NCBI GenBank assembly: GCA_964591795.1
Contig: CAZQEL010000004.1
Span: 16,805-48,804, forward strand
DNA length: 32,000 bases
Reading direction: 5' to 3'
Origin: an uncultured archaeon
Lineage (GTDB): Archaea > Iainarchaeota > Iainarchaeia > Iainarchaeales > CSSED10-239
Under the pieces are notes generated by a model. It did no database searches. It was given only the letters and a program-made list of their open reading frames with translations, and had not been told where the DNA came from. Of the stretch, positions 2,486-26,565 are shown one piece after another. A program made the position numbers and the translations under genes. Every line of letters starts with the position of its first letter. Positions within the stretch are counted from its first letter, which is position 1.

Positions 2486-3607
2486 TTAAAATAACAACCA
2501 TATAAAATCCCCTAAAATATTTAAAAGGATATATGCACACAAAACAGAAGGTGTAAATGGAATTGTCTTTTTTAAAATGATTTCTGTTTCTAAATTATGG
2601 TTGTAAGAACTCTTTAAAAAGGTTATGTCTTTTAAAGAAAGTCCTCCAATTTTCCTAGAATCCACTATGAGATTAGTGTGATAGGTATTATTTATTATCA
2701 TTTTTAGATAGGTTATAAAAGAAATTTTTTTAACAACTAATTTAGAATTAACTAAATAATAACAATTTACAGGAACATCTCCGTCTTTTAATTGAGCTAA
2801 TGTTTTGGTGGTAGCTAAAATTTTAGTAGATATAATTTGATACATAGTAATTGCTAAAAACAAAATAATAATTGTTAACAATATAGAAATAAAATCTTTT
2901 AAATAAAATATTTGAGCAGTAACAAAGAATGAAATTATTAATAAAAACACATAAAACAAACTTATTAAATAGTAATAATATCTCAAACTATATTTTTCAA
3001 CTTGTTTAAAAAATAATATAAATAAAATGGATAATATGAAATACAATACCAGTGGTACGTTTAAAGAAAAAATATTAAAGAAAGAACTTATTAAATATAA
3101 AACCAAAATAGAACTAATTAACGATAAAATAGTATTTTTGGTTTTTAATAAATTCCATAAAATAAGATAATGCTTTTTAAATATAAACAAATAAAAAGAA
3201 TTAATTAATAAAACTGGAGCAGTTGCTAAAACACTTACAAGGATTAATGTGATTCCAAATATTGGTGCCTTAATAGTTCCAAAAGTAAATATCCAGTTTA
3301 TAAAATTAATATTTACTGGATTTAACATAGATATTGCAGCAAATAATTTTAAGTCGCCACCAGCAAAAAAACCTACTTCCCAAAATATATAAGAAACTAC
3401 CAAAGTAATTACAAAACCTAACAAAGCATTTAAAAAAATACTACTCTGATGTAAGATGATTGCTTCTAAAACTTTAGTAATTAAACCAATTATAAATAAT
3501 AAAAGAACTAATTTATTTGGAATAATTCTTTTTTTAATATCAAAAAAACTAGCAAAAATTAAAAATAAGATTGTTATTAAAAATATAAAAAGAGTAAAAT
3601 TAAACAT
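2486..3607 (-). CDS. Prepilin/preflagellin peptidase, A24 (GxGD aspartyl protease) family, enlarged EppA-like form
   Basis: The first catalytic Asp context is FFDIKKRIIPNKL and the second Asp sits in FFAGGDLKLFAAI. A C-terminal IPFTPSV resembles the conserved PFGPF end of A24 peptidases. The protein is about 10 TM and 373 aa, and the gene is embedded among prepilin genes. Confidence 0.85.
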   Translation of the reverse strand: MFNFTLFIFLITILFLIFASFFDIKKRIIPNKLVLLLFIIGLITKVLEAIILHQSSIFLNALLGFVITLVVSYIFWEVGFFAGGDLKLFAAISMLNPVNINFINWIFTFGTIKAPIFGITLILVSVLATAPVLLINSFYLFIFKKHYLILWNLLKTKNTILSLISSILVLYLISSFFNIFSLNVPLVLYFILSILFILFFKQVEKYSLRYYYYLISLFYVFLLIISFFVTAQIFYLKDFISILLTIIILFLAITMYQIISTKILATTKTLAQLKDGDVPVNCYYLVNSKLVVKKISFITYLKMIINNTYHTNLIVDSRKIGGLSLKDITFLKSSYNHNLETEIILKKTIPFTPSVLCAYILLNILGDFIWLLF

Positions 3608-5271: not shown

Positions 5272-6174
5272 TTAAACCATTCCTGCAAGCATTAAATTTA
5301 GTACAAATTGAGATATAAAGTAAACTATATAACCAATAGTTATTAAAACAGGGAAAAATAAAACAACGAAACTTAAGTCTCCTTCCCTCATAACACTAAT
5401 CATTGCAGATGCTGCAAATATTTCTAATACAATATAAATATCTAAAAGTAAGAATATTGTTCTTTGAGCTTTTAATGAAACTGCTAAAGATTCTGCAGCT
5501 GCAATACCCGAATTAATTGCAATATCTGTTAAAAAACCAGTTATTACTCTGGTCATTCCAAAAATAAAAGGAGCAACTATTGCTGATGCTGCAACAATAA
5601 AAATTGTTTGAAGCATAGTTTTTGTTAATCTTTCTTTTTTAACCCTAAATAATTGTTTAGTGTCATTTGCAATTTCATCTAAAACATCTGCTAACTGAGC
5701 ACCTGTTCTTATTGATTCTTGAATTAAAGTAATAGTTCTTCTTACAATTTTAGACTCTATTCTTAAAGAAAGATAACTTAGGGCTACATGCATAGTATCT
5801 CCCATTTCAAGTCTTCTTATTGCTTCGTTAATTTCAAATGATAGTGGTCCAAAATCAGCAGTTGACACTTCTCTCAGTGCAAATTCAAATGATGACCCTG
5901 CCTTCATTGTGTCTGCAATTAACTTTAATGAATCTGGCCAATATCTTTCTATATTTCTTATTTTTTTATAATAAATATACATAGGCATACCAAGACCTAA
6001 AACTAATGCATTTACGAAAAATAAAATACCGATTTTTAAATCTATAAACTGTCCTATAAAACCTAAGGCTAGACTCGCAAAAAATATTAATAATATCCAT
6101 GCTCTTGCAGGGATTTTAATTTTTAACGCAAGTAAAAAAACTTGGTATCTATCTAATCTGGTTGATTTCAACAT
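5272..6174 (-). CDS. Pilus platform membrane protein, T2SS-F domain (TadC/EpdK-like)
   Basis: It has a single T2SSF-type domain (WPDSLKLIADTMKAGSSFEFALREV...LIQESIRTGAQLADVLDEIANDT) flanked by TM helices. There is a 3-nt gap to the preceding TadB-like gene. Confidence 0.8.
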   Translation of the reverse strand: MLKSTRLDRYQVFLLALKIKIPARAWILLIFFASLALGFIGQFIDLKIGILFFVNALVLGLGMPMYIYYKKIRNIERYWPDSLKLIADTMKAGSSFEFALREVSTADFGPLSFEINEAIRRLEMGDTMHVALSYLSLRIESKIVRRTITLIQESIRTGAQLADVLDEIANDTKQLFRVKKERLTKTMLQTIFIVAASAIVAPFIFGMTRVITGFLTDIAINSGIAAAESLAVSLKAQRTIFLLLDIYIVLEIFAASAMISVMREGDLSFVVLFFPVLITIGYIVYFISQFVLNLMLAGMV

Positions 6175-18343: not shown

Positions 18344-20950
18344 TTAATGTTTCATATCACAAGAACCTTTAAAGCCACAACCAGCAGAACACTCTGTACA
18401 ACCACCAAGTTTAATCATAACACCAGTTTTACAATTAGGACAAGTTTGACCTGCTTCTGAACCATAAACTACTAATTTATCTTGTGCTTTTATTTCATAA
18501 TCATTATTTGTTCTTGTTGATTTTTTTGTTTTTTCATCATTTTTTCTTTTTATTGCATCTTCATTTATTTGTTCTTGTTTTTTATTTGTAGATAAAACTT
18601 GTTCATCTCTAGATGAATCTCTATAGATTGTAACACCTTTACAACCTAAATCATAAGCTTTCATATAAAGTTCTTCTGTTTGTTCAACAGTAAAGTTTGC
18701 AGGAACGTTTGCGGTTTTACTTATTGATGAATCAGTCCATTTTTGAATAGCTGCTTGTACATTTATGTGATCATCAGGAGATAACTCCATTGCAGAAACA
18801 AAATATTTTGGAAGTTTATCATCTTTATAATATGCTTGCGCAATAGGAGCATGTACTTCGTGGAAACCAAGTCTTGATTGCCTATAATATTTAAATGCAA
18901 AATATGGTTCTATACCTGTTGATGTTCCTATCATAGTTCCAGTTGACCCTGTAGGTGCTTGTGTAGTTAAAGCGATATTACGTATACCTTTTTCTTTAAT
19001 TTTTTCTTGAACTTCAAGTGGAAGTTCTTTTATAAATTTACTATTAAGATATTTTTCTTTATCAAACTTTGGAAAAAAACCTTTTTCTTCAGCAAGAAGT
19101 GCTGAAGTAGTATACATTTCACAAGTAATTAATTTATATAATTTATCAATAAATACTAAACTTTCTTGTGATCCATATGTAATTCTAAGTTTAATTAATA
19201 ATTCAGCTAAACCTAATGTTCCTCCACCTATTCTTCTTTCTGATTTTTGAACTTTTTCATTTTGTTCAAAGAAATAAGGTGTAAGATCGATTATATTATC
19301 TAAAAACCTAGTTAATACTTTTGCAGATTTTTTTAATTTATCCCAATTAAATTCATATATTGGGCCTACTTTATCATCACCTATTTTTTCAGCAAAAGAT
19401 GCTAAATATAAATGTCCAAGATTACATACACCCCATGCTGGTAATCCTTGTTCACCACAAGGATTTGTTGCAATTATTTTATTATAATAATAACTATTAC
19501 TCATTTTATTATATCTTTCCATAAAAACAACACCAGGTTCAGCTGATTTCCACGCAGAATTAATTATTTTTCTCCAAAGATCTTTTGCTTTTACTTTATC
19601 ATAAATTTTTGTAGGATAGCCTTTTTCTTTCCAAGCTTTTAAATCTCCATCCCACTCTTTATCATACACTTCAGAATAAGTTACATTTTCATAATCTGGA
19701 AATTCTAAAAACCAATCCTCATCATTTTTTACAGCTTCCATAAAAACATCAGAAACTTTAACTGATATATTAGCATGTTCTAAAATACCTGATTTTATTT
19801 TTGCATTAACAAATGAATAAATATCTGGATGCCAATCATCAAGCATAAGCATAAGCGCACCTCTTCTAGATCCTCCTTGTTCAATTAATCCTGTTAAAAA
19901 AGAATATAATCCACCCCAGGATACTGCTCCAGAAGATCTACCATGAACACCACGCACATAAGCATAAGCTGGTCTTAAACTTGAAAGTGACATACCAACA
20001 CCACCACCTCTAGAAAAAATTTCAACCATGTAATGTGCTGCTTCTTTAATAATTGAACTTCTAGAATCTTGTGGTGATGGAATAACATAACAATTATATA
20101 AAGTTAGATTTGAAGTATATCCAAGTTCATCAACTGATGCTCCAGAAAGAATTCTTCCACCTGGAGAAATATGATTATTTTTTAATTGTTCATAAAATTC
20201 ATCAAACCATTTATTTCTAGACAATTCATCTTTTTCTACTTTTGCAACTGCTTTAGCTACTCTTTTATATGTATCAAATACGGATTCATTTGGTTTCTCA
20301 CATTTACTTTGATTTTGAACAAATTCAAAATTATAAAATTCATCAGCATAAATTCCTGTAATCATATAAAGATATACTTTGTTATTTTCTAAATTTTTAA
20401 CAATTCCAATATCTTTCTTAGGATATTTTTCATCATCTTTTGTAATTGTGATAATTAAATCTCCAATTTCAATTTCATCTCTCTTTGTTTTTATAGAATA
20501 TCTATCTAAAAAAATTATTAAACCAAGATCTTTAAACACAGCTGAATTATTTATTACATTTATTGCTTGTTTTGATAAATTTATATTATTATTTTTTAAT
20601 TTAACAACTATTTCAGTATCAATTACTTCTTCTTTACTTTCTCTTAATTTTCTTTTTTCTTCTCTGTATAATATAAATGATTTTGCTACATTTGTTATTT
20701 CAGATGCAATTAACACATATTCTATAGCATCAGATACATCTTCTACAGATGGAACTTTATTTATAAATTTAGATTCTAAAACTAAAATTATTTTTTCAAC
20801 CAAAGTTTCTAAAAAAACCTCGTCTACTTCATCAACAGACTTCATTGCTTTTAATATAGCACTTTGAATTTTTAATTTATTAAAATCAACTATTTCACCG
20901 GTTCTTTTTTTTACTTGAGTTATTTTTTTAATTTTTAGAATCATGTTCAT
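18344..20950 (-). CDS. nrdJ: Ribonucleotide reductase, class II (adenosylcobalamin-dependent) with an N-terminal ATP-cone and a C-terminal Cys-rich Zn ribbon
   Basis: The ATP-cone is VKKRTGEIVDFNKLKIQSAILKA and the active-site motif is TNPCGEQGLP. It has a single large chain with no adjacent R2 or activase gene. The C-terminus is CPNCKTG..GGCTECSAGCGFKGSCD. The flanking cobalamin adenosyltransferase supports class II. Confidence 0.85.
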   Translation of the reverse strand: MNMILKIKKITQVKKRTGEIVDFNKLKIQSAILKAMKSVDEVDEVFLETLVEKIILVLESKFINKVPSVEDVSDAIEYVLIASEITNVAKSFILYREEKRKLRESKEEVIDTEIVVKLKNNNINLSKQAINVINNSAVFKDLGLIIFLDRYSIKTKRDEIEIGDLIITITKDDEKYPKKDIGIVKNLENNKVYLYMITGIYADEFYNFEFVQNQSKCEKPNESVFDTYKRVAKAVAKVEKDELSRNKWFDEFYEQLKNNHISPGGRILSGASVDELGYTSNLTLYNCYVIPSPQDSRSSIIKEAAHYMVEIFSRGGGVGMSLSSLRPAYAYVRGVHGRSSGAVSWGGLYSFLTGLIEQGGSRRGALMLMLDDWHPDIYSFVNAKIKSGILEHANISVKVSDVFMEAVKNDEDWFLEFPDYENVTYSEVYDKEWDGDLKAWKEKGYPTKIYDKVKAKDLWRKIINSAWKSAEPGVVFMERYNKMSNSYYYNKIIATNPCGEQGLPAWGVCNLGHLYLASFAEKIGDDKVGPIYEFNWDKLKKSAKVLTRFLDNIIDLTPYFFEQNEKVQKSERRIGGGTLGLAELLIKLRITYGSQESLVFIDKLYKLITCEMYTTSALLAEEKGFFPKFDKEKYLNSKFIKELPLEVQEKIKEKGIRNIALTTQAPTGSTGTMIGTSTGIEPYFAFKYYRQSRLGFHEVHAPIAQAYYKDDKLPKYFVSAMELSPDDHINVQAAIQKWTDSSISKTANVPANFTVEQTEELYMKAYDLGCKGVTIYRDSSRDEQVLSTNKKQEQINEDAIKRKNDEKTKKSTRTNNDYEIKAQDKLVVYGSEAGQTCPNCKTGVMIKLGGCTECSAGCGFKGSCDMKH

Positions 20951-20974: not shown

Positions 20975-21493
20975 TTAATATTCAATTCCTTTCCTTGCTA
21001 AAGTTTTTTTAAAATAATGTTTTATTTCTTTCATTTCAGTAATTAAATCTGCAAGACTACTTATTTCTTCATTTAAATATCTTCCAGTAATTATTAGTTC
21101 AATTTTTTTAGTTTTACAAATTTTAATTATTTCTTTGAGTTTATCTAATTTTATTAAATTATAATATAATACTAAATTAAATTCATCTAAAATCAACAAA
21201 TCAATTTTTTTATTTTTTAAAATATTATCTAAATATATAATTCCTTTTTCAATTTGAATGAAATGTTCTTTTTTTATATTATTATTAATTATAAATTCTT
21301 TAATTCCAAATTTTTTAAAACAAATATTTGGAATTTTAGTTAAAATTTTTTGTTCACCTGTTATTTGTGCTTTTAAAAATTGCACAAAATACACATTTCT
21401 ACCAGTTCCGGCACACCTTATGGCTTGCCCTATAGCAGAAGTTGTTTTTCCCTTACCGTTTCCAGTATAAATATGAAATTTACCATAATTCAT
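20975..21493 (-). CDS. cobO: Cob(I)alamin adenosyltransferase (CobA/CobO/BtuR family)
   Basis: The family-typical P-loop and following segment read YTGNGKGKTTSAIGQAIRCAGTGRNVYFVQFLK..TGE and LLILDEFN. The ORF-track start at 21514 is TTG; the ATG at 21493 (MNYGKFHIYTG) is preceded by AAGGGG. Confidence 0.8.
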   Translation of the reverse strand: MNYGKFHIYTGNGKGKTTSAIGQAIRCAGTGRNVYFVQFLKAQITGEQKILTKIPNICFKKFGIKEFIINNNIKKEHFIQIEKGIIYLDNILKNKKIDLLILDEFNLVLYYNLIKLDKLKEIIKICKTKKIELIITGRYLNEEISSLADLITEMKEIKHYFKKTLARKGIEY

Positions 21494-21705
21494 TTTTAAA
21501 AACCCCTTTTTCAAAAAATGAAAAGTTCTGAAAATATAATAGTAGATTTTGTTTTTATAGTGTTTGGTTTAAAATACAAATTAATAGTTTTATTTTATTT
21601 TAAATATGAATAAATGATATACATTAGCCTATTGAAAAAACCATAAAATACCAAAAAGAATATATATTTATCCACATAAACATAATATAAGTGATATTAT
21701 ACTGA

Positions 21706-22032
21706 ATAAATATAAAAGATAATTTAATTAAACCTGCAAAACATTCAATAATATACGATGATTTATATTTATATGCGTGTCTTGCAAAATATCCTATAAC
21801 AAAAGGACATACTATTATTGTTTGGAAAAAAATAGTAAAAGATTTAAATTTGTTAAATAAAAAAGAATATGATTATTTAATGGATAAAGTAGATGAAGTT
21901 AATCATGTTCATTGGCATTTAGTTCCAAGATATAACAAAAAAGGATTTGATGTATTTGCTCATACTCCAAAAAAAAATAGTGACTTTTCATTAGTTAACA
22001 AAATACAAAAAAAATTAATTTTAAAAATTTAA
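21706..22032 (+). pseudogene. Degenerate HIT-family (histidine triad) gene
   Basis: The frame is open from 21706: INIKDNLIKPAKHSIIYDDLYLYACLAKYPITKGHTIIVWKK...VNHVHWHLVPRY. The HIT N-terminal half and the HxHxHxx triad are recognisable. There is no ATG, only an internal TTG at 21850. An in-frame TGA sits at 21703 after a GTG. About 25 aa appear missing between the GHT and NHVH segments compared with typical ~130-aa archaeal HIT proteins. The stop lies 1 nt before the xer ATG. Confidence 0.5.
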
Positions 22033-22033
22033 T

Positions 22034-22888
22034 ATGATAGAAATTAGTAAAAACACAAAATTAATCAATAAATTCAAAAATGAATTAAATATAGAAGGAT
22101 ATAGTGCTAAAACAATAGAAACTTATTCAATGTATATAAATTTATTTAATAGATACATAAAAAAAGATTTGATAATGGTAGTAAATGATGATATCATAGA
22201 TTATTTATCATATTTAAAAATAAATAAAAAAGTTAAGAGTACTACAATAAATTTAGTTCTTTCAGCAATAAAGCACTTTTATGGTCAATTTTTAAAAAAA
22301 GATTTAGATTTAAATATAAAATTACCTAAAAAAGCTAAAAAAATACCAATGGTACTTACAACTAAGGAAATTAAAGAATTAATTAAGGCAACTAAAAACA
22401 CACGAAACCGCCTAATAATTGAATTTATTTTTTCAACAGGTGTTAGAATATCAGAGTGTATGTCTATGAAAATTAACGACTTAGACTTTAATGAATATAC
22501 TGGTAAGGTTGTATCTGGTAAAGGGAATAAAGATAGGTTAATTATACTTTCTAAAAAATGGGTTGGTAATTATAATAAATATTTAGACAATAGAAATAAA
22601 GATGTTAATTCAGAATATTTATTTTGTAATAGTCAAGGAAATCAATTATCAGTAGATACTGTTCAAAAATTTTTAAAAATATCAGCAAAAACAGCTAATA
22701 TTACAAAAAACGTATCTCCTCATACATTAAGACATTCTTTTGCAACTAGTTTACTTGAAAATGATGTTAATATAAGATATATTCAACAACTTCTTGGTCA
22801 TACTAATTTAAACACAACACAAATATATACAAAAGTAAATACTAATAAATTAAAAATAATTATAAATCCATTAGATAATATTGATTAA
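22034..22888 (+). CDS. xerA: Tyrosine recombinase, XerA/XerCD-like
   Basis: An N-terminal SAM-like core-binding domain is followed by the catalytic signature STGVRISE ... HTLRHSFATSLLENDVNIRYIQQLLGHTNLNTTQIYTKV (R..HxxR..H..Y). The 284-aa length is typical of archaeal XerA. A role as the integrase or invertase of the adjacent accessory DNA cannot be excluded. Confidence 0.85.
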   Translation: MIEISKNTKLINKFKNELNIEGYSAKTIETYSMYINLFNRYIKKDLIMVVNDDIIDYLSYLKINKKVKSTTINLVLSAIKHFYGQFLKKDLDLNIKLPKKAKKIPMVLTTKEIKELIKATKNTRNRLIIEFIFSTGVRISECMSMKINDLDFNEYTGKVVSGKGNKDRLIILSKKWVGNYNKYLDNRNKDVNSEYLFCNSQGNQLSVDTVQKFLKISAKTANITKNVSPHTLRHSFATSLLENDVNIRYIQQLLGHTNLNTTQIYTKVNTNKLKIIINPLDNID

Positions 22889-23080: not shown

Positions 23081-23443
23081 ATGACAACAAGAATATCAAA
23101 ATTATTTGGTATGGATATATATCAAACAGACGCTACTTATAGAGGAAAAGTTCATGATCTTATTGTAAATATTGAACAAGGTGTTATAGAAACTATAACA
23201 ACTCAACCTTTAAAGGTTAATTCTAAGTTAGAAGCTAAAAAAATTATTACTGAACATAGTATTCCTTATAACAAAGTAATATCTTCAGATGATATTATTT
23301 TAATTAATGCCGGTAATGTTCCTATAAAACAAGAACAAAAAAGAATATCTGAAGAAAAACATACAAATACAGGTAAAAGTAAAGATGCTAGTATTAGAAA
23401 AAAATATATAGGTTATAAAAGTAAATACGCTGCAAGAAAATAG
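23081..23443 (+). CDS. PRC-barrel domain protein with a Lys/Tyr-rich basic tail
   Basis: ISKLFGMDIYQTDATYRGKVHDLIVNIEQGVIETI fits the archaeal PRC-barrel pattern (G-x-x-V/I-Y..G..-G-x-V-x-D-hhh-D...G-x-I). A strong SD (TGGAGGA) lies 8 nt upstream of the ATG. The tail is RKKYIGYKSKYAARK. Several oligo-T runs follow the stop. Confidence 0.65.
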   Translation: MTTRISKLFGMDIYQTDATYRGKVHDLIVNIEQGVIETITTQPLKVNSKLEAKKIITEHSIPYNKVISSDDIILINAGNVPIKQEQKRISEEKHTNTGKSKDASIRKKYIGYKSKYAARK

Positions 23444-23485: not shown

Positions 23486-23538
23486 TATATATATATAAAC
23501 ATATACATATATTATATATATATATTATATATATACAT
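23486..23538. repeat. Imperfect (TA)n / TATATA-rich low-complexity tract
   Basis: The sequence is TATATATATATAAACATATACATATATTATATATATATATTATATATATACAT. It lies between the PRC-barrel gene terminator and the next gene and contains multiple overlapping TATA-box-like sequences. Confidence 0.7.
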
Positions 23539-23584
23539 AAAATAAGTTTTAATAATAAAATTATTTTATTACAGGAAGTACGGG

Positions 23585-24187
23585 GTGTCTCTCTTGACTA
23601 AAATTAAATCAAGCTATATTAAATATAAATTTATTTTTAAAGATAATATTAATAGATCTTCCTATCTTTATCAAAAAGTATTTAGATCAATTTATGGTTA
23701 TCAACAAAATGTAACTAAAAAAGGTAATAAACCATATTTATATATTAGAAAAGGAATATTAACAGATATACCTCATTATAAACCAGGTAGAAATGCAGTT
23801 GTAGTACCTAAAGGGTATGAACAAAAATTAATAGAATATTTTACAACTGGTATTAATCCAGCACATAATTGGAAAACAAAAGGTGATTGGGAAGTAAAAT
23901 ATACTGTTGATGAAATTGAATTAGATATTAATAATATTATAAAAATATTAGAAGATTTTATATATAATTATAAAATAATTAATTTAAATAATAAAGAAAT
24001 TAGTTTGTTTTTAGAATTAAATTATTTAGTTGAAAATAATATTATGGATAAAAACTATTTAACTAATATTATTAAGATATCAGATAATATAATTAATTTT
24101 GAATGGTTTAAAGAAACTAAAGAACAATCAGAAAAATTAACTAGTTTTTATAGTAATTATCAAAAAATAAAGCAAAAATTACAGTAA
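23585..24187 (+). CDS. Hypothetical protein (about 197-200 aa), no recognised family
   Basis: The ORF-track start is GTG at 23585. TTG at 23594 is better placed, 6 nt after GGGGTG. The N-terminal ~90 aa show an alternating beta-alpha pattern (YKFIFKD / SSYLYQKVFRSIYGY / KPYLYIRKGIL / NAVVVPKG / YEQKLIEYF). The C-terminal half is Asn/Ile-rich and helical. Confidence 0.55.
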   Translation: MSLLTKIKSSYIKYKFIFKDNINRSSYLYQKVFRSIYGYQQNVTKKGNKPYLYIRKGILTDIPHYKPGRNAVVVPKGYEQKLIEYFTTGINPAHNWKTKGDWEVKYTVDEIELDINNIIKILEDFIYNYKIINLNNKEISLFLELNYLVENNIMDKNYLTNIIKISDNIINFEWFKETKEQSEKLTSFYSNYQKIKQKLQ

Positions 24188-24191
24188 TTAC

Positions 24192-24710
24192 TTATTCTTT
24201 TTTTATTATTATTATGTTTTTTTTCCAAGTTCTTTTTTTCCCAGTATTATTTAATTTAATTAAATTAATATCAGTTAATGTTTTTAAATATGGATAAAGA
24301 CTTTTTTCATTTGAATATTCTATATTAAAATTTAATTTAATATTATGTCTTATTTCATCCATTGTTACCCATTTATCAGATGGTATTGAATTGATAATAT
24401 GTTCTGCTTGAGTATTTTCTTTTATTTTTAAAAACTCCCAAATTGTATGTAATTGATTTGTTATGATTTTTTTTACATCAATAGTTTGTGTTGTATCTTC
24501 TATAATATTGTTTTTTGTATTAAGATATTTTAATTTGAGTATTCTTTCTTCTTCTAAATAATTTCCAGTTATGTTGTTATTTTCTACTGTTAAATTAGTA
24601 TTATTCAGTTTAGTTTCTGTTGGTTCAATTTTAAGATCTACTTTAGATAATTTTGAATTTAATTTTTTATTTTTAATAAAAAAACTTTTTATAAATTTTA
24701 ATAATCCCAT
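24192..24710 (-). CDS. Hypothetical protein with a probable C-terminal winged-helix DNA-binding domain
   Basis: ATG at 24710. The N-terminal half is low complexity (Asn/Lys/Thr). The C-terminus WVTMDEIRHNIKLNF....SLYPYLKTLTDINLIKLNNTGKKRTWKK looks like helix-turn-helix plus a beta-wing. It is convergent with the preceding gene (4-nt gap). Its upstream region is the GTAATTAC palindrome array. Confidence 0.5.
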   Translation of the reverse strand: MGLLKFIKSFFIKNKKLNSKLSKVDLKIEPTETKLNNTNLTVENNNITGNYLEEERILKLKYLNTKNNIIEDTTQTIDVKKIITNQLHTIWEFLKIKENTQAEHIINSIPSDKWVTMDEIRHNIKLNFNIEYSNEKSLYPYLKTLTDINLIKLNNTGKKRTWKKNIIIIKKE

Positions 24711-24717
24711 ATAATAA

Positions 24718-25146
24718 GTAATTACCGTAATGATTTTAAATCTTTTGGTAATTACAGTAATTATATAGTTAATTTTGTGGTAATTACAGTAATTATATAG
24801 ATTTTTAATATAATTTTTGTTGATAATTTTATTATAAGTTAATTTATTAATTTATTTCTTATTAAATTTATGTAGCTTGTAATGAAATTTTTAATAAAAT
24901 AAATAAATTTTAATAAATTAGTTGGTAATTACCAATATTTTAGTTAGTAATTACTATGTTTTTATAGTTTATTTTTTATTTAATTTGAAAATTAGTGTTT
25001 TTAAGTTGTTTAAAGTGATTTTTACACTTTAAATTTAATTTAATGGCCTTTTATATATTTTAAGCCTTAATATTTTAATTATTAGTAATTACTTTATTAG
25101 TCCAAGTTTAGTTGTATTTTATTTAATTAATAATGGTAATTACCAT
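24718..25146. repeat. Array of seven GTAATTAC palindromic sites (putative protein-binding iterons or operators)
   Basis: Exact GTAATTAC starts at 24718, 24748, 24780, 24925, 24947, 25085 and 25136. Extended perfect palindromes are TTGGTAATTACCAA (24922-24935), TAGTAATTACTA (24945-24956), AGTAATTACT (25084-25093) and ATGGTAATTACCAT (25133-25146). A perfect 23-bp direct repeat TGGTAATTACAGTAATTATATAG occurs at 24746-24768 and 24778-24800. Confidence 0.85.
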
Positions 25147-25170
25147 ATTTTATTTAAAATAAGTATTTAT

Positions 25171-25244
<74 letters not shown>

Positions 25245-25332
25245 ATTTTTGTAAGTATTTGTTTTAAGTAAAAATAGTTAGTAATATATATTTTAATAAA
25301 CCAAAATATATATAAACCTATTTAAACTAATT

Positions 25333-25905
25333 TTATCCACAAACAAATCCCTTTGTATTATCAGTAATTTTAGTTATTATAATTTCTAGTTTTTTGATAT
25401 TTTCTTCAATTTTTCTTTTTTCTTTTTTAAGTTTAATTATTCTTTTTTTAACATTTACCATTTCTAAATTAGTACTACAATTTGGACATTTAAAGTTATA
25501 AGCTGCAGCAACTTCAAATGCGACTTCCACATTACATTTTTTAGGACAATAAAAATAATCATGACCTTCTTTTTGTGTTAAATCATATTCTATTTTTTTA
25601 TATTTTTTCATTTCTTGTATTAATAAAATATCAATAATTTTTTTATATTTAATTTCCCAAATAAATTCATACATGTTATTTTCATTTCTTTTTTTCTTAT
25701 AACATGCAATACCTCTAAAGTGTAAACTATTTAATGTGGCTCTTACAATTGTAATTTTTTCTTTTAATTTTTTTGAAATGTCTTCTGGAGATAATCCATT
25801 GTTATTGAATAACTTAACAACATTAATTGCCATCGGTCCTGCAATCTGTTCTAAAAAATTGATTGTAGTTTTGTCTGATAATAATTCTTTTTTAAGTTTA
25901 TTCAT
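25333..25905 (-). CDS. tfe: Transcription factor E (TFE, TFIIE-alpha homologue)
   Basis: The N-terminal winged helix is FLEQIAGPMAINVVKLF...ISKKLKEKITIVRATLNSLHFRGIACYKK...YEFIWEI. The Zn ribbon is YFYCPKKC...FKCPNCSTNLE. The ATG at 25905 is preceded by GGAGAGTGAT; the ORF-track start at 25917 is GTG inside that SD. Confidence 0.8.
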   Translation of the reverse strand: MNKLKKELLSDKTTINFLEQIAGPMAINVVKLFNNNGLSPEDISKKLKEKITIVRATLNSLHFRGIACYKKKRNENNMYEFIWEIKYKKIIDILLIQEMKKYKKIEYDLTQKEGHDYFYCPKKCNVEVAFEVAAAYNFKCPNCSTNLEMVNVKKRIIKLKKEKRKIEENIKKLEIIITKITDNTKGFVCG

Positions 25906-25945
25906 AAATAACATCACTCTCCTATAGTAATATTATGTTACAAAA

Positions 25946-26473
25946 CTATTTTAAGGAGATAACTTTCTTTCCTTTATTGCAAGGATCAATTTTTATTTTT
26001 GTATTTTTAAAAGAATCAGTAAATAATGCATCTGGATTTAAATAATTTAAAATAATAGCTAGTGCTGCTACTTCACTATGGGGTTGATTTGTAACTGATA
26101 GATTGTAATTTGCATTTTCATAATAAAAATTTTCAACTTTTGGACCACCAACAATAATTAATAGATTTATTTGTTTTTTATGTTCTTTAATAATTTCATT
26201 TATTTTATTTATTATTTTTATACCATACATAGTTAAATGAATTTTTATACCTTTAAAATTAGTAACAATTTCTTGTGGTTCTGTAGTATAAATTGTTTTG
26301 AATTTACCGCCCCATTGTTTGTTTATTTCAATCACACTTTTTTCAAAATGGTCATCTTCAATTCCAGAATAATAAAATCTGTTTGCTCCAAAAGCTCTTG
26401 AAACTAAAGCACAATGAGTTGTAATTCTTTTATCTCTAAAAGGACGATGATCTAATTTTAATATATATATCAT
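25946..26473 (-). CDS. trm56: tRNA (cytidine56-2'-O)-methyltransferase, aTrm56 (SPOUT family)
   Basis: The N-terminus MIYILKLDHRPFRDKRITTHCALVSRAFGA matches the highly conserved aTrm56 signature (LRLGHRxxRDKRxTTHVxLxARAFGA). The size (~175 aa) fits. The ORF-track start at 26482 is TTG. Confidence 0.8.
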   Translation of the reverse strand: MIYILKLDHRPFRDKRITTHCALVSRAFGANRFYYSGIEDDHFEKSVIEINKQWGGKFKTIYTTEPQEIVTNFKGIKIHLTMYGIKIINKINEIIKEHKKQINLLIIVGGPKVENFYYENANYNLSVTNQPHSEVAALAIILNYLNPDALFTDSFKNTKIKIDPCNKGKKVISLK

Positions 26474-26565
26474 GTTTTTCAAATTTTTAATTTATGTTTA
26501 CTTAACATTTAAAATAGAAATTATTTATAAATGTTTAGCTTGTATAATATATATACAATATTATC

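Follow-up and report, generated by a model that had tools for sequence, protein, structure and literature searches.

The window, by which we mean the whole 32,000-nucleotide stretch that was analysed, is chromosomal DNA from a very AT-rich (~24% G+C) DPANN archaeon. This text concerns a spacer in which the 8-bp palindrome GTAATTAC is repeated many times, and which lies between the gene of a 172-residue winged helix-turn-helix (wHTH) protein (24192..24710, minus strand) and the initiator tRNA-Met gene (25169..25245, minus strand), the two genes running in the same direction. The first-pass annotation had already placed the array beside this tRNA gene, correctly; the A1:U72 pair and the three G:C pairs closing the anticodon stem identify the tRNA as the initiator, and in every locus it bounds the spacer on the upstream side. 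The array and the wHTH gene have been kept together in every related genome examined, so the array is most likely that protein's own set of binding sites around its promoter.

Exact copies of GTAATTAC start at positions 24718, 24748, 24780, 24925, 24947, 25085 and 25136, that is, seven copies in 426 bp (24718-25143), which agrees with the earlier count of seven in about 430 bp. Two more are present in the window, at 3405 and at 24184-24191. The first-pass annotation had listed only the former and was wrong on this point, the overlooked copy lying exactly between the stop codons of two convergent genes, those of the wHTH protein and of a 200-residue protein here called p200. The nine copies in the whole window compare with 0.87 expected, and none of 100 dinucleotide-preserving shuffles reached nine; the array is real and highly non-random, as had been claimed from its density. 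At four sites the palindrome is perfect over 10-14 bp (TTGGTAATTACCAA, TAGTAATTACTA, AGTAATTACT and ATGGTAATTACCAT), and symmetrising the flanks of the sites gives the 12-bp consensus YR-GTAATTAC-YR. A 23-bp sequence, TGGTAATTACAGTAATTATATAG, occurs twice without mismatch at a period of 32 bp, each copy having the degenerate site GTAATTAT 9 bp after the exact one. The extended palindromes, the repeat with its second site, and centre-to-centre spacings of 30, 32, 22 and 51 bp had all been described before and all hold.

The cluster closest to the promoter (24718..24796, no strand assigned to this or the other clusters) is made up of three double sites of the form ATTAC-N-GTAATTAC. On the gene strand these read ATAATTAC-T-GTAATTAC twice and tcATTAC-G-GTAATTAC once, with exact sites at 24718, 24748 and 24780 and one-mismatch sites at 24757 and 24789. 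The site nearest to the wHTH gene ends 8 bp 5' of the ATG at 24710, the distance reported earlier. This cluster is unchanged in the four closest relatives, and its layout recurs throughout the phylum. The middle cluster (24925..24954) holds the palindromic TTGGTAATTACCAA and TAGTAATTACTA, 22 bp apart, and the distal cluster (25085..25143) two palindromic sites at a spacing of 51 bp, with 26 bp between the outer site and the tRNA 3' end. Past the other end of the wHTH gene there are downstream sites (24153..24191), the exact copy at 24184-24191 and, 31 bp beyond it, the one-mismatch site GTAATTAT at 24153-24160 within the 3' end of p200.

For comparison we used a scan of one genome per GTDB species, which gave 52 loci, each taken with ±6 kb and given an L number. 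Nearly all belong to the Iainarchaeota (Diapherotrites), among them the complete genome of Ca. Forterrea multitransposorum (L002). The gene order is conserved, with Trm56, TFE, tRNA-iMet, the spacer and the wHTH gene followed by the convergent p200, a PRC-barrel protein and XerA, and it is kept even where TFE identity is down to 30-40%. In the window these neighbours are aTrm56 (25946-26482) and TFE-alpha (25333-25917), both on the minus strand and co-directional with the tRNA and wHTH genes, and on the plus strand p200 (23585..24187), the PRC-barrel protein (23081-23443) and the XerA recombinase (22034-22888). The last of these matches the archaeal XerA equivalog NF040815 with 267 bits, against a cut-off of 220.

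The palindrome GTAATTAC is found in the spacer of 53 of 53 loci, in genomes ranging from 0.20 to 0.49 G+C, and is the only universal 8-mer there besides the tRNA sequence; no 10-mers are universally conserved in the block other than in the tRNA and at the GTAATTAC site. Of the copies counted, 196 are in the 34 kb of spacer and 67 in the remaining 500 kb, which is a 42-fold enrichment. In the related loci the interval that starts 2.5 kb upstream of the wHTH gene and ends 150 bp downstream of it has 267 sites where 5.7 are expected, and beyond these limits (409 kb) the 30 sites, where 14.7 are expected, are near background. The motif is also absent from 10 kb of the same genome beyond the window's left end. 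A generic AT-rich repeat, which the first-pass annotation had named as the outcome that would overturn its interpretation, is not compatible with an enrichment concentrated at one locus. The strongest property of the system, that the palindrome and the winged-helix protein are conserved together, in the same place, across the phylum, emerged only by comparison.

The number of exact sites differs with base composition, AT-rich genomes having a median of 6 and up to 10 per locus, and genomes above 30% G+C a median of 2, at the promoter. The high-G+C relatives hold 1-3 exact sites, all of them located at the promoter. The core that is conserved consists of the promoter sites, and the long arrays elaborate on it. 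In 37 of the 53 loci the predicted ATG is preceded by an exact site at a distance of 8-40 bp, and in 44 by one with at most one mismatch. Adjacent sites are spaced 9-10, 18-22, 30-32, 41, 50-52 or 61-63 bp apart across loci, with almost nothing between these values, and the vector strength at 10.3 bp is 0.77, as compared to a maximum of 0.34 in 2000 random sets. These counts come from related loci and are non-independent, yet several distinct spacing classes obey the same rule. Such phasing implies that the sites are on one face of the helix, and the earlier suggestion that spacings close to whole turns put them on the same side of the DNA is consistent with it.

Between the sites at -45 and -15 of the wHTH gene lies a TATA-like box, TTTAAAAT (24733..24740, minus strand), covering -30 to -23 from the ATG. 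The box is invariant in the window, L001, L002 and L003, and in most loci the alignments have TTTAAAAT, TTTATAA or TTTTAAG at the matching position. The aligned core, found phylum-wide, consists of TTAC-N-GTAA or a full site, the TATA-like box, GTAATTAC, 10-20 bp and the ATG, and in the window and most of the 52 relatives sites flank the box 20-30 bp before the wHTH start codon. The box would act as the promoter, and its position relative to the ATG implies an mRNA that is leaderless or has a very short leader. The palindromic sites overlap this putative core promoter, assigned from sequence, of the wHTH protein's own gene.

Outside the promoter block the spacer sequence is not conserved. A short conserved island, GCTACATAA, is located at -166 of the wHTH gene (24868..24876, minus strand) and resembles the promoter-like 10-mer TTATACATAA. 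In most loci this 10-mer lies ~50 bp 5' of p200, and a sister clade also has it at -140 of the wHTH gene; in the window a similar sequence, ATATACATAA, is present at 23531-23540 on the plus strand. The same 10-mer was also seen in several other spacers of the high-G+C relatives, and at many positions in L006-L052. This 10-mer probably represents either a promoter consensus that is general in the phylum or else a regulatory element held in common. The possibility of a non-coding RNA in the spacer was considered and rejected, as Rfam matched tRNAs only and there was no conservation outside the promoter block, and no credible small open reading frame (ORF) was found in the spacer. The sites were also compared with a dif site for XerA. 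The layout of dif is two 11-bp arms with a 6-8-bp spacer, and the sites do not have it.

Two further observations concern the spacers of relatives. The distal spacers of high-G+C genomes carry lineage-specific short direct repeats of the form TYACTTT, on one strand and 40-70 bp apart, for instance CTTACTTT (six times in L023), GMTTACTTT, CCACGCACTT and CACTCAAAAAAACAA; they are found in L023 at 5478-5743, L032 at 5437-5699, L039 at 2212-2424 and L021 at 5499-5649, and one TYACTTT element aligns throughout clade 2. These repeats may be half-sites, or sites of another factor. In L036 the spacer sequence at 5668-5712 looks by eye like the 5' and 3' ends of the adjoining tRNA-iMet (AGCGGGATGGGGCAG...CCCCGC) and may be a tRNA remnant.

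The wHTH protein is the presumed binder of the sites. Its N-terminal segment, read as a cationic amphipathic helix, is joined by a disordered linker rich in N and K to a winged helix at the C-terminus (residues ~100-165). An AlphaFold2 (AF2) model of residues ~100-165 has a predicted local distance difference test score (pLDDT) of 86-91 and the topology H-H-H-beta-beta, which is that of a winged helix, and the top Foldseek matches in the PDB are repressors of the Fur/PerR, ArsR/SmtB, PadR and MarR type, with TubR at rank 50. The protein had been annotated as an orphan wHTH, and of this description the fold stands but the orphan status does not, since a homologue search returned 89 proteins. 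Their C-terminal ~85 residues are 50-83% identical, with the pattern ENTQAEH...W..MDEIR...EY.NEKSLYPYLKTLTDINL...GKKRTWKK. Almost no variation is seen in the recognition-helix region NEKSLYPYLKTLTD or in the wing GKKRTWKK, which matches the invariance of the DNA site.

When 1.84 billion representative proteins were searched exhaustively with a profile, only 37 clusters were found, all at E<=1e-12 and with no weaker matches behind them, which indicates a compact, lineage-restricted family. It is single-copy per locus and, by these searches, restricted to Iainarchaeota. The protein had no Pfam or NCBIfam match at E<=0.1 and, by profile, no PDB sequence match at E<=10; it fits none of the MarR, ArsR, PadR, Lrp, TrmB and Fur families by their sequence models, and the family has no relatives in IMG/VR. 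One PHROG match (SieA-like, E=0.0014) sits in the low-complexity N-terminal part and was disregarded. Nothing relevant to the motif or to regulators of Iainarchaeota was found in the literature. In kind the locus would be a transcription factor with its operator, and both the protein family and the motif are undescribed.

We consider, with somewhat more confidence than doubt, that the array is a cooperative, autorepressing operator field of the adjacent wHTH protein. Of the three options put forward in the first-pass annotation, a cooperative operator array is the best supported. Dimers of the protein would recognise the 12-bp palindrome YR-GTAATTAC-YR together with runs of GTAAT/ATTAC half-sites; YRGTAATTACYR is a putative target of the 24192..24710 product, and TGGTAATTACCA a putative DNA partner of the dimer. 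One site lies on each side of the TATA-like box in the putative promoter of the gene, and we propose that their occupancy blocks TBP/TFB or RNA polymerase, the usual mode of archaeal repressors, so that the gene would repress itself. The further sites, from ~430 bp upstream to just past the stop codon, recur every ~10.3 bp on one helix face, and this phasing would allow cooperative binding and looping into a larger nucleoprotein complex that brackets the gene. That the wHTH protein binds, that binding represses its gene and that binding is cooperative are inferences.

Several points weigh against an autorepressing operator field. The Foldseek E-values are all >1e-3, and the protein has no recognisable ligand-sensing domain. 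To control nothing but its own gene would be an odd task for a regulator, and the DNA sampled, ~42 kb of this genome and ±6 kb around the locus in the others, showed no further target promoters. For a classical winged-helix dimer, a core of 8 bp is short. Arrays of 6-10 sites, with sites after the stop codon and within coding DNA, exceed what simple autorepression needs. Finally, p200 is equally co-conserved and could in principle bind the sites.

This last point leads to an improbable alternative, that the sites are bound by p200 or by a factor encoded elsewhere, and that the wHTH gene is the regulated target only. The p200 gene is lineage-restricted like the wHTH gene, is convergent with it in nearly every locus that includes the downstream flank, and accompanies the array in ~46 of the 52 loci. 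Its product gave a very confident AF2 model (pLDDT 89.5) that has no fold match in the PDB or BFVD, and it has no match in Pfam, NCBIfam or PHROG. The absence of a match to any DNA-binding fold speaks against p200 as the binder. The wHTH domain is a known DNA-binding fold, and its conservation exceeds that of most neighbouring genes. Moreover, the sites are centred on the wHTH promoter, and the p200 promoter has a different motif, TTATACATAA. It is conceivable that p200 is instead a functional partner of the wHTH protein.

Sites outside the promoter are found in several relatives. As in the window, there are sites after the wHTH stop codon in L001-L003 and L015, where 2-3 of them follow directly 3' of it. 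In L028, L030 and L040 two housekeeping genes, coding for a GT2 glycosyltransferase and Dus, are inserted between the tRNA and wHTH genes, and the sites persist inside them (L028 3836-5883; L040 3884-5825). The GT2 gene of L040 alone has 5 sites where 0.04 are expected, and four of these encode V-I-T in frame. The Trm56 genes of L006, L012 and L019 each contain two sites at a distance of 31 bp (4232/4263, 4078/4109 and 4113/4144, respectively), in the form ATTACTGTAATTACC, which reads I-T-V-I-T. In general the coding-embedded GTAATTAC reads as V-I-T or x-N-Y codons and is far above chance, which suggests selection for binding sites regardless of what they encode. Five sites are found between MutS and Trm56 in L005.

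On another reading, which we regard as rather unlikely, the array would be a chromosomal cis-site in its own right, acting like a centromere or tethering the locus to the membrane or division site, with autorepression as a by-product. This is the centromere-like option of the first-pass annotation, and it lacks a gene for a partner nucleoside triphosphatase (NTPase). With the winged helix coating the phased sites, the amphipathic helix at the N-terminus would reach the membrane or a partner protein on its long flexible linker. The concentration of the sites at one locus fits such a role, as do the large, helix-phased arrays that bracket the gene, the sites kept by selection in neighbouring coding DNA, and the general layout of a repeated-site array adjoining the gene of a small, putatively site-specific DNA-binding protein. 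TubR at rank 50 among the fold matches is in line with it as well.

The protein itself can be read in the same way, as it combines an amphipathic N-terminus, a disordered linker and a winged helix, without a sensor domain. Its first ~15 residues are conserved, cationic and amphipathic, with a mean hydrophobic moment of 0.67 as compared to 0.51 when shuffled, and the N-terminal half is disordered and N/K-rich. Residues 1-20, MGLLKFIKSFFIKNKKLNSK, are similar in kind to the membrane-targeting helices of MinD, FtsA, SepF and Noc; they also loosely resemble a PIP-like [ILM]xxFF peptide. However, AF2 did not predict this segment as a helix, and the amphipathic helix is a heuristic reading of the residues, which counts against a tether.

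The neighbours can be argued both ways. The genes conserved beside the array include XerA and the PRC-barrel protein, and PRC-barrel proteins act in archaeal cell division (10.1101/2023.03.28.534520), but this synteny may be historical, and PRC-barrel genes are also found beside translation genes (10.1101/2023.03.28.534520). The conserved block consists of Trm56, TFE, the tRNA, wHTH, p200, the PRC barrel and XerA, without any gene for an NTPase of the ParA, SegA, TubZ or ParM type, and the only P-loop protein nearby is the CobO adenosyltransferase. Bacterial parS clusters are origin-proximal. It counts in favour of a similar role that the Forterrea locus is ~8% of the genome away from the record start, which the genome paper gives as the origin (PMC5905446). 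It counts against a structural site that the high-G+C relatives keep 1-3 exact sites, at the promoter only, which makes the ancestral core look like an operator. Rather unlikely, as one joint claim, is that the wHTH protein is an Iainarchaeota-specific chromosome-anchoring or centromere-binding protein. Its C-terminal winged helix would then coat the GTAATTAC field, and its N-terminal amphipathic helix would tie this single locus to the membrane or to the machinery of division or segregation, with XerA, the PRC barrel and p200 encoded alongside.

The length of the spacer, 313-520 bp and kept in streamlined genomes, raises the question of a replication origin. GTAATTAC would then serve as the recognition boxes of a primary or secondary chromosomal origin, with the wHTH protein acting as an initiator independent of Orc or as a factor that binds the origin. 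Besides the conserved non-coding length, this idea can draw on the repeated, phased sites adjoining the gene of a dedicated DNA-binding protein, on the low G+C of the window spacer (14%), and on the genes for RFC, topoisomerase, ribonucleotide reductase (RNR) and MutS/L nearby. We find it very improbable. Neither the window, nor the 10 kb past its left end (L174), nor any of the 52 loci with their ±6 kb was found to contain an orc1/cdc6 or whiP gene, the long ORFs being otherwise assigned and the unscanned ORFs being shorter than 185 residues. The sites do not look like origin recognition boxes (ORB) or mini-ORB, genes do not diverge from the spacer, and its sequence is unconserved apart from the promoter block. 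In the high-G+C relatives the spacer, at 0.38-0.43 G+C, is not more AT-rich than another spacer (0.30-0.40), and there is no conserved unwinding element. Local GC skew in the window tracks gene orientation and is uninformative about an origin.

For the Forterrea genome an origin has been predicted. It was placed next to cdc6 by cumulative GC skew and Z-curve analysis, and the start of the genome was adjusted to it (PMC5905446). The locus L002 lies at ~770 kb of 839.6 kb, ~69 kb from the start of the deposited record, presumably the adjusted one, and is fully accounted for from MutL to dUTPase, without cdc6.

A mobile element integrated at tRNA-Met, with the array as the remnant or the origin of a plasmid or virus, is an idea to which we give next to no credence. 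It starts from the tyrosine recombinase gene 2 kb away and from the tRNA gene at the edge of the repeat region, but the recombinase is the chromosomal XerA equivalog (NF040815, 267 vs 220 bits) and the whole block is syntenic across the phylum. There are no att-like repeats, as no repeat of the tRNA of >=14 nt was present in the window, and no viral relatives of the wHTH family in IMG/VR; on these grounds the integrated element was excluded. The plasmid or viral iteron origin proposed in the first-pass annotation was rejected as well, since the block is chromosomal and syntenic and has no adjacent Rep or Orc1/Cdc6 gene, and since the wHTH family is not found in IMG/VR and gave no meaningful PHROG match. 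As many as 120 viral contigs matched GTAATTACNGTAATTA, but these were single chance matches, none with a comparable array.

The genes of the window include type IV pilus genes and those for RFC, topoisomerase, CDC48, dUTPase, RNR with CobO, MutS/MutL, aTrm56 and TFE-alpha. The RNR (868 residues; 18344-20950, minus strand), presumed by eye to be of class II, adjoins a corrinoid adenosyltransferase of the CobO/BtuR type (20975-21514, minus strand), and this pairing is conserved in many relatives. Presumably CobO supplies adenosylcobalamin in an organism of minimal metabolism. Directly 5' of xerA a 60-residue ORF (21850-22032, plus strand) gave a match to a HIT domain that is confined to the C-terminal end of the domain (E=0.005), and it may be a gene remnant.

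Some contigs that carry the block were assigned to other organisms. L005, L010 and L044 were binned as Candidatus Vampirococcus, Bacilli and Planctomycetales, and L044 is identical to L024; these three contigs are probably misbinned. In one Diapherotrites metagenome-assembled genome (MAG) a 613-kb contig (P0089) starts inside the wHTH gene (tag _00005, protein truncated), which indicates that the assembly broke at or beside the repeat array.

DPANN archaea have not been cultured or are difficult to grow, and to our knowledge almost nothing is known about their gene regulation and chromosome biology. The locus offers a testable pair, an invariant 8-12-bp palindrome and a small, highly conserved protein, in a phylum that spans 20-49% G+C, and the wHTH gene comes directly after the TFE and initiator tRNA genes. 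If the protein is a plain autorepressor, it would be the first candidate for a lineage-defining regulator with a predicted operator in Iainarchaeota. A structural cis-site would, if true, mean a new archaeal way to mark or handle a chromosomal locus, and if the protein also anchors it, this would be a previously unknown archaeal segregation or positioning device without a ParA-type ATPase in the locus. In either case the motif is a practical marker for Iainarchaeota contigs that have been misbinned in bacterial MAGs.

Among known systems, archaeal oriC, where ORB and mini-ORB flank a DNA unwinding element (DUE) by orc1/cdc6, is similar in being a long conserved intergenic region with repeats beside the gene of a DNA-binding protein. 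Here, however, there is no orc1/cdc6, no ORB-like sequence and no conserved DUE, and the predicted Forterrea origin, next to cdc6, is probably elsewhere. Systems with autoregulating centromere-binding proteins, namely TubR/tubC, ParR/parC, AspA of pNOB8, ParB/parS and Noc/NBS, also have an array of repeated sites beside the gene for the small protein that binds it, with the promoter embedded in the array. Both TubR and AspA are wHTH proteins, Noc has an N-terminal amphipathic helix and a DNA-binding domain, and for a tether the comparison would be RacA/ram. Contrary to these, the present block has no partner NTPase, it is chromosomal and phylum-wide and not on a plasmid, and relatives with few sites keep those at the promoter only.

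Structurally, the DNA-binding domain of the wHTH protein comes closest to Fur and PerR, and the arrays of hexamers in Fur boxes recall the short abutting half-sites GTAAT/ATTAC found here every ~4.5-9 bp. The wHTH protein is different in that it has no metal-binding or dimerisation domain and no sequence homology to Fur or PerR, and the Foldseek E-values are 2e-3 to 1e-2.

Autoregulated archaeal repressors with several regularly spaced palindromic operators include Ss-LrpB, with three boxes, MDR1, Phr and those of the TrmB type. The likeness to these is a small HTH or wHTH protein, palindromes that overlap or abut the B recognition element (BRE)/TATA and the start site of its own gene, and helix-phased sites that imply cooperative binding. 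The protein described here differs from them in belonging to a new family without sequence relation to the Lrp, MarR, ArsR, PadR or TrmB models, and in having no ligand-binding domain. Its sites differ too, with up to 10 of them over ~1 kb, including sites downstream of the gene and in coding DNA, and with motif and gene both invariant across a whole phylum.

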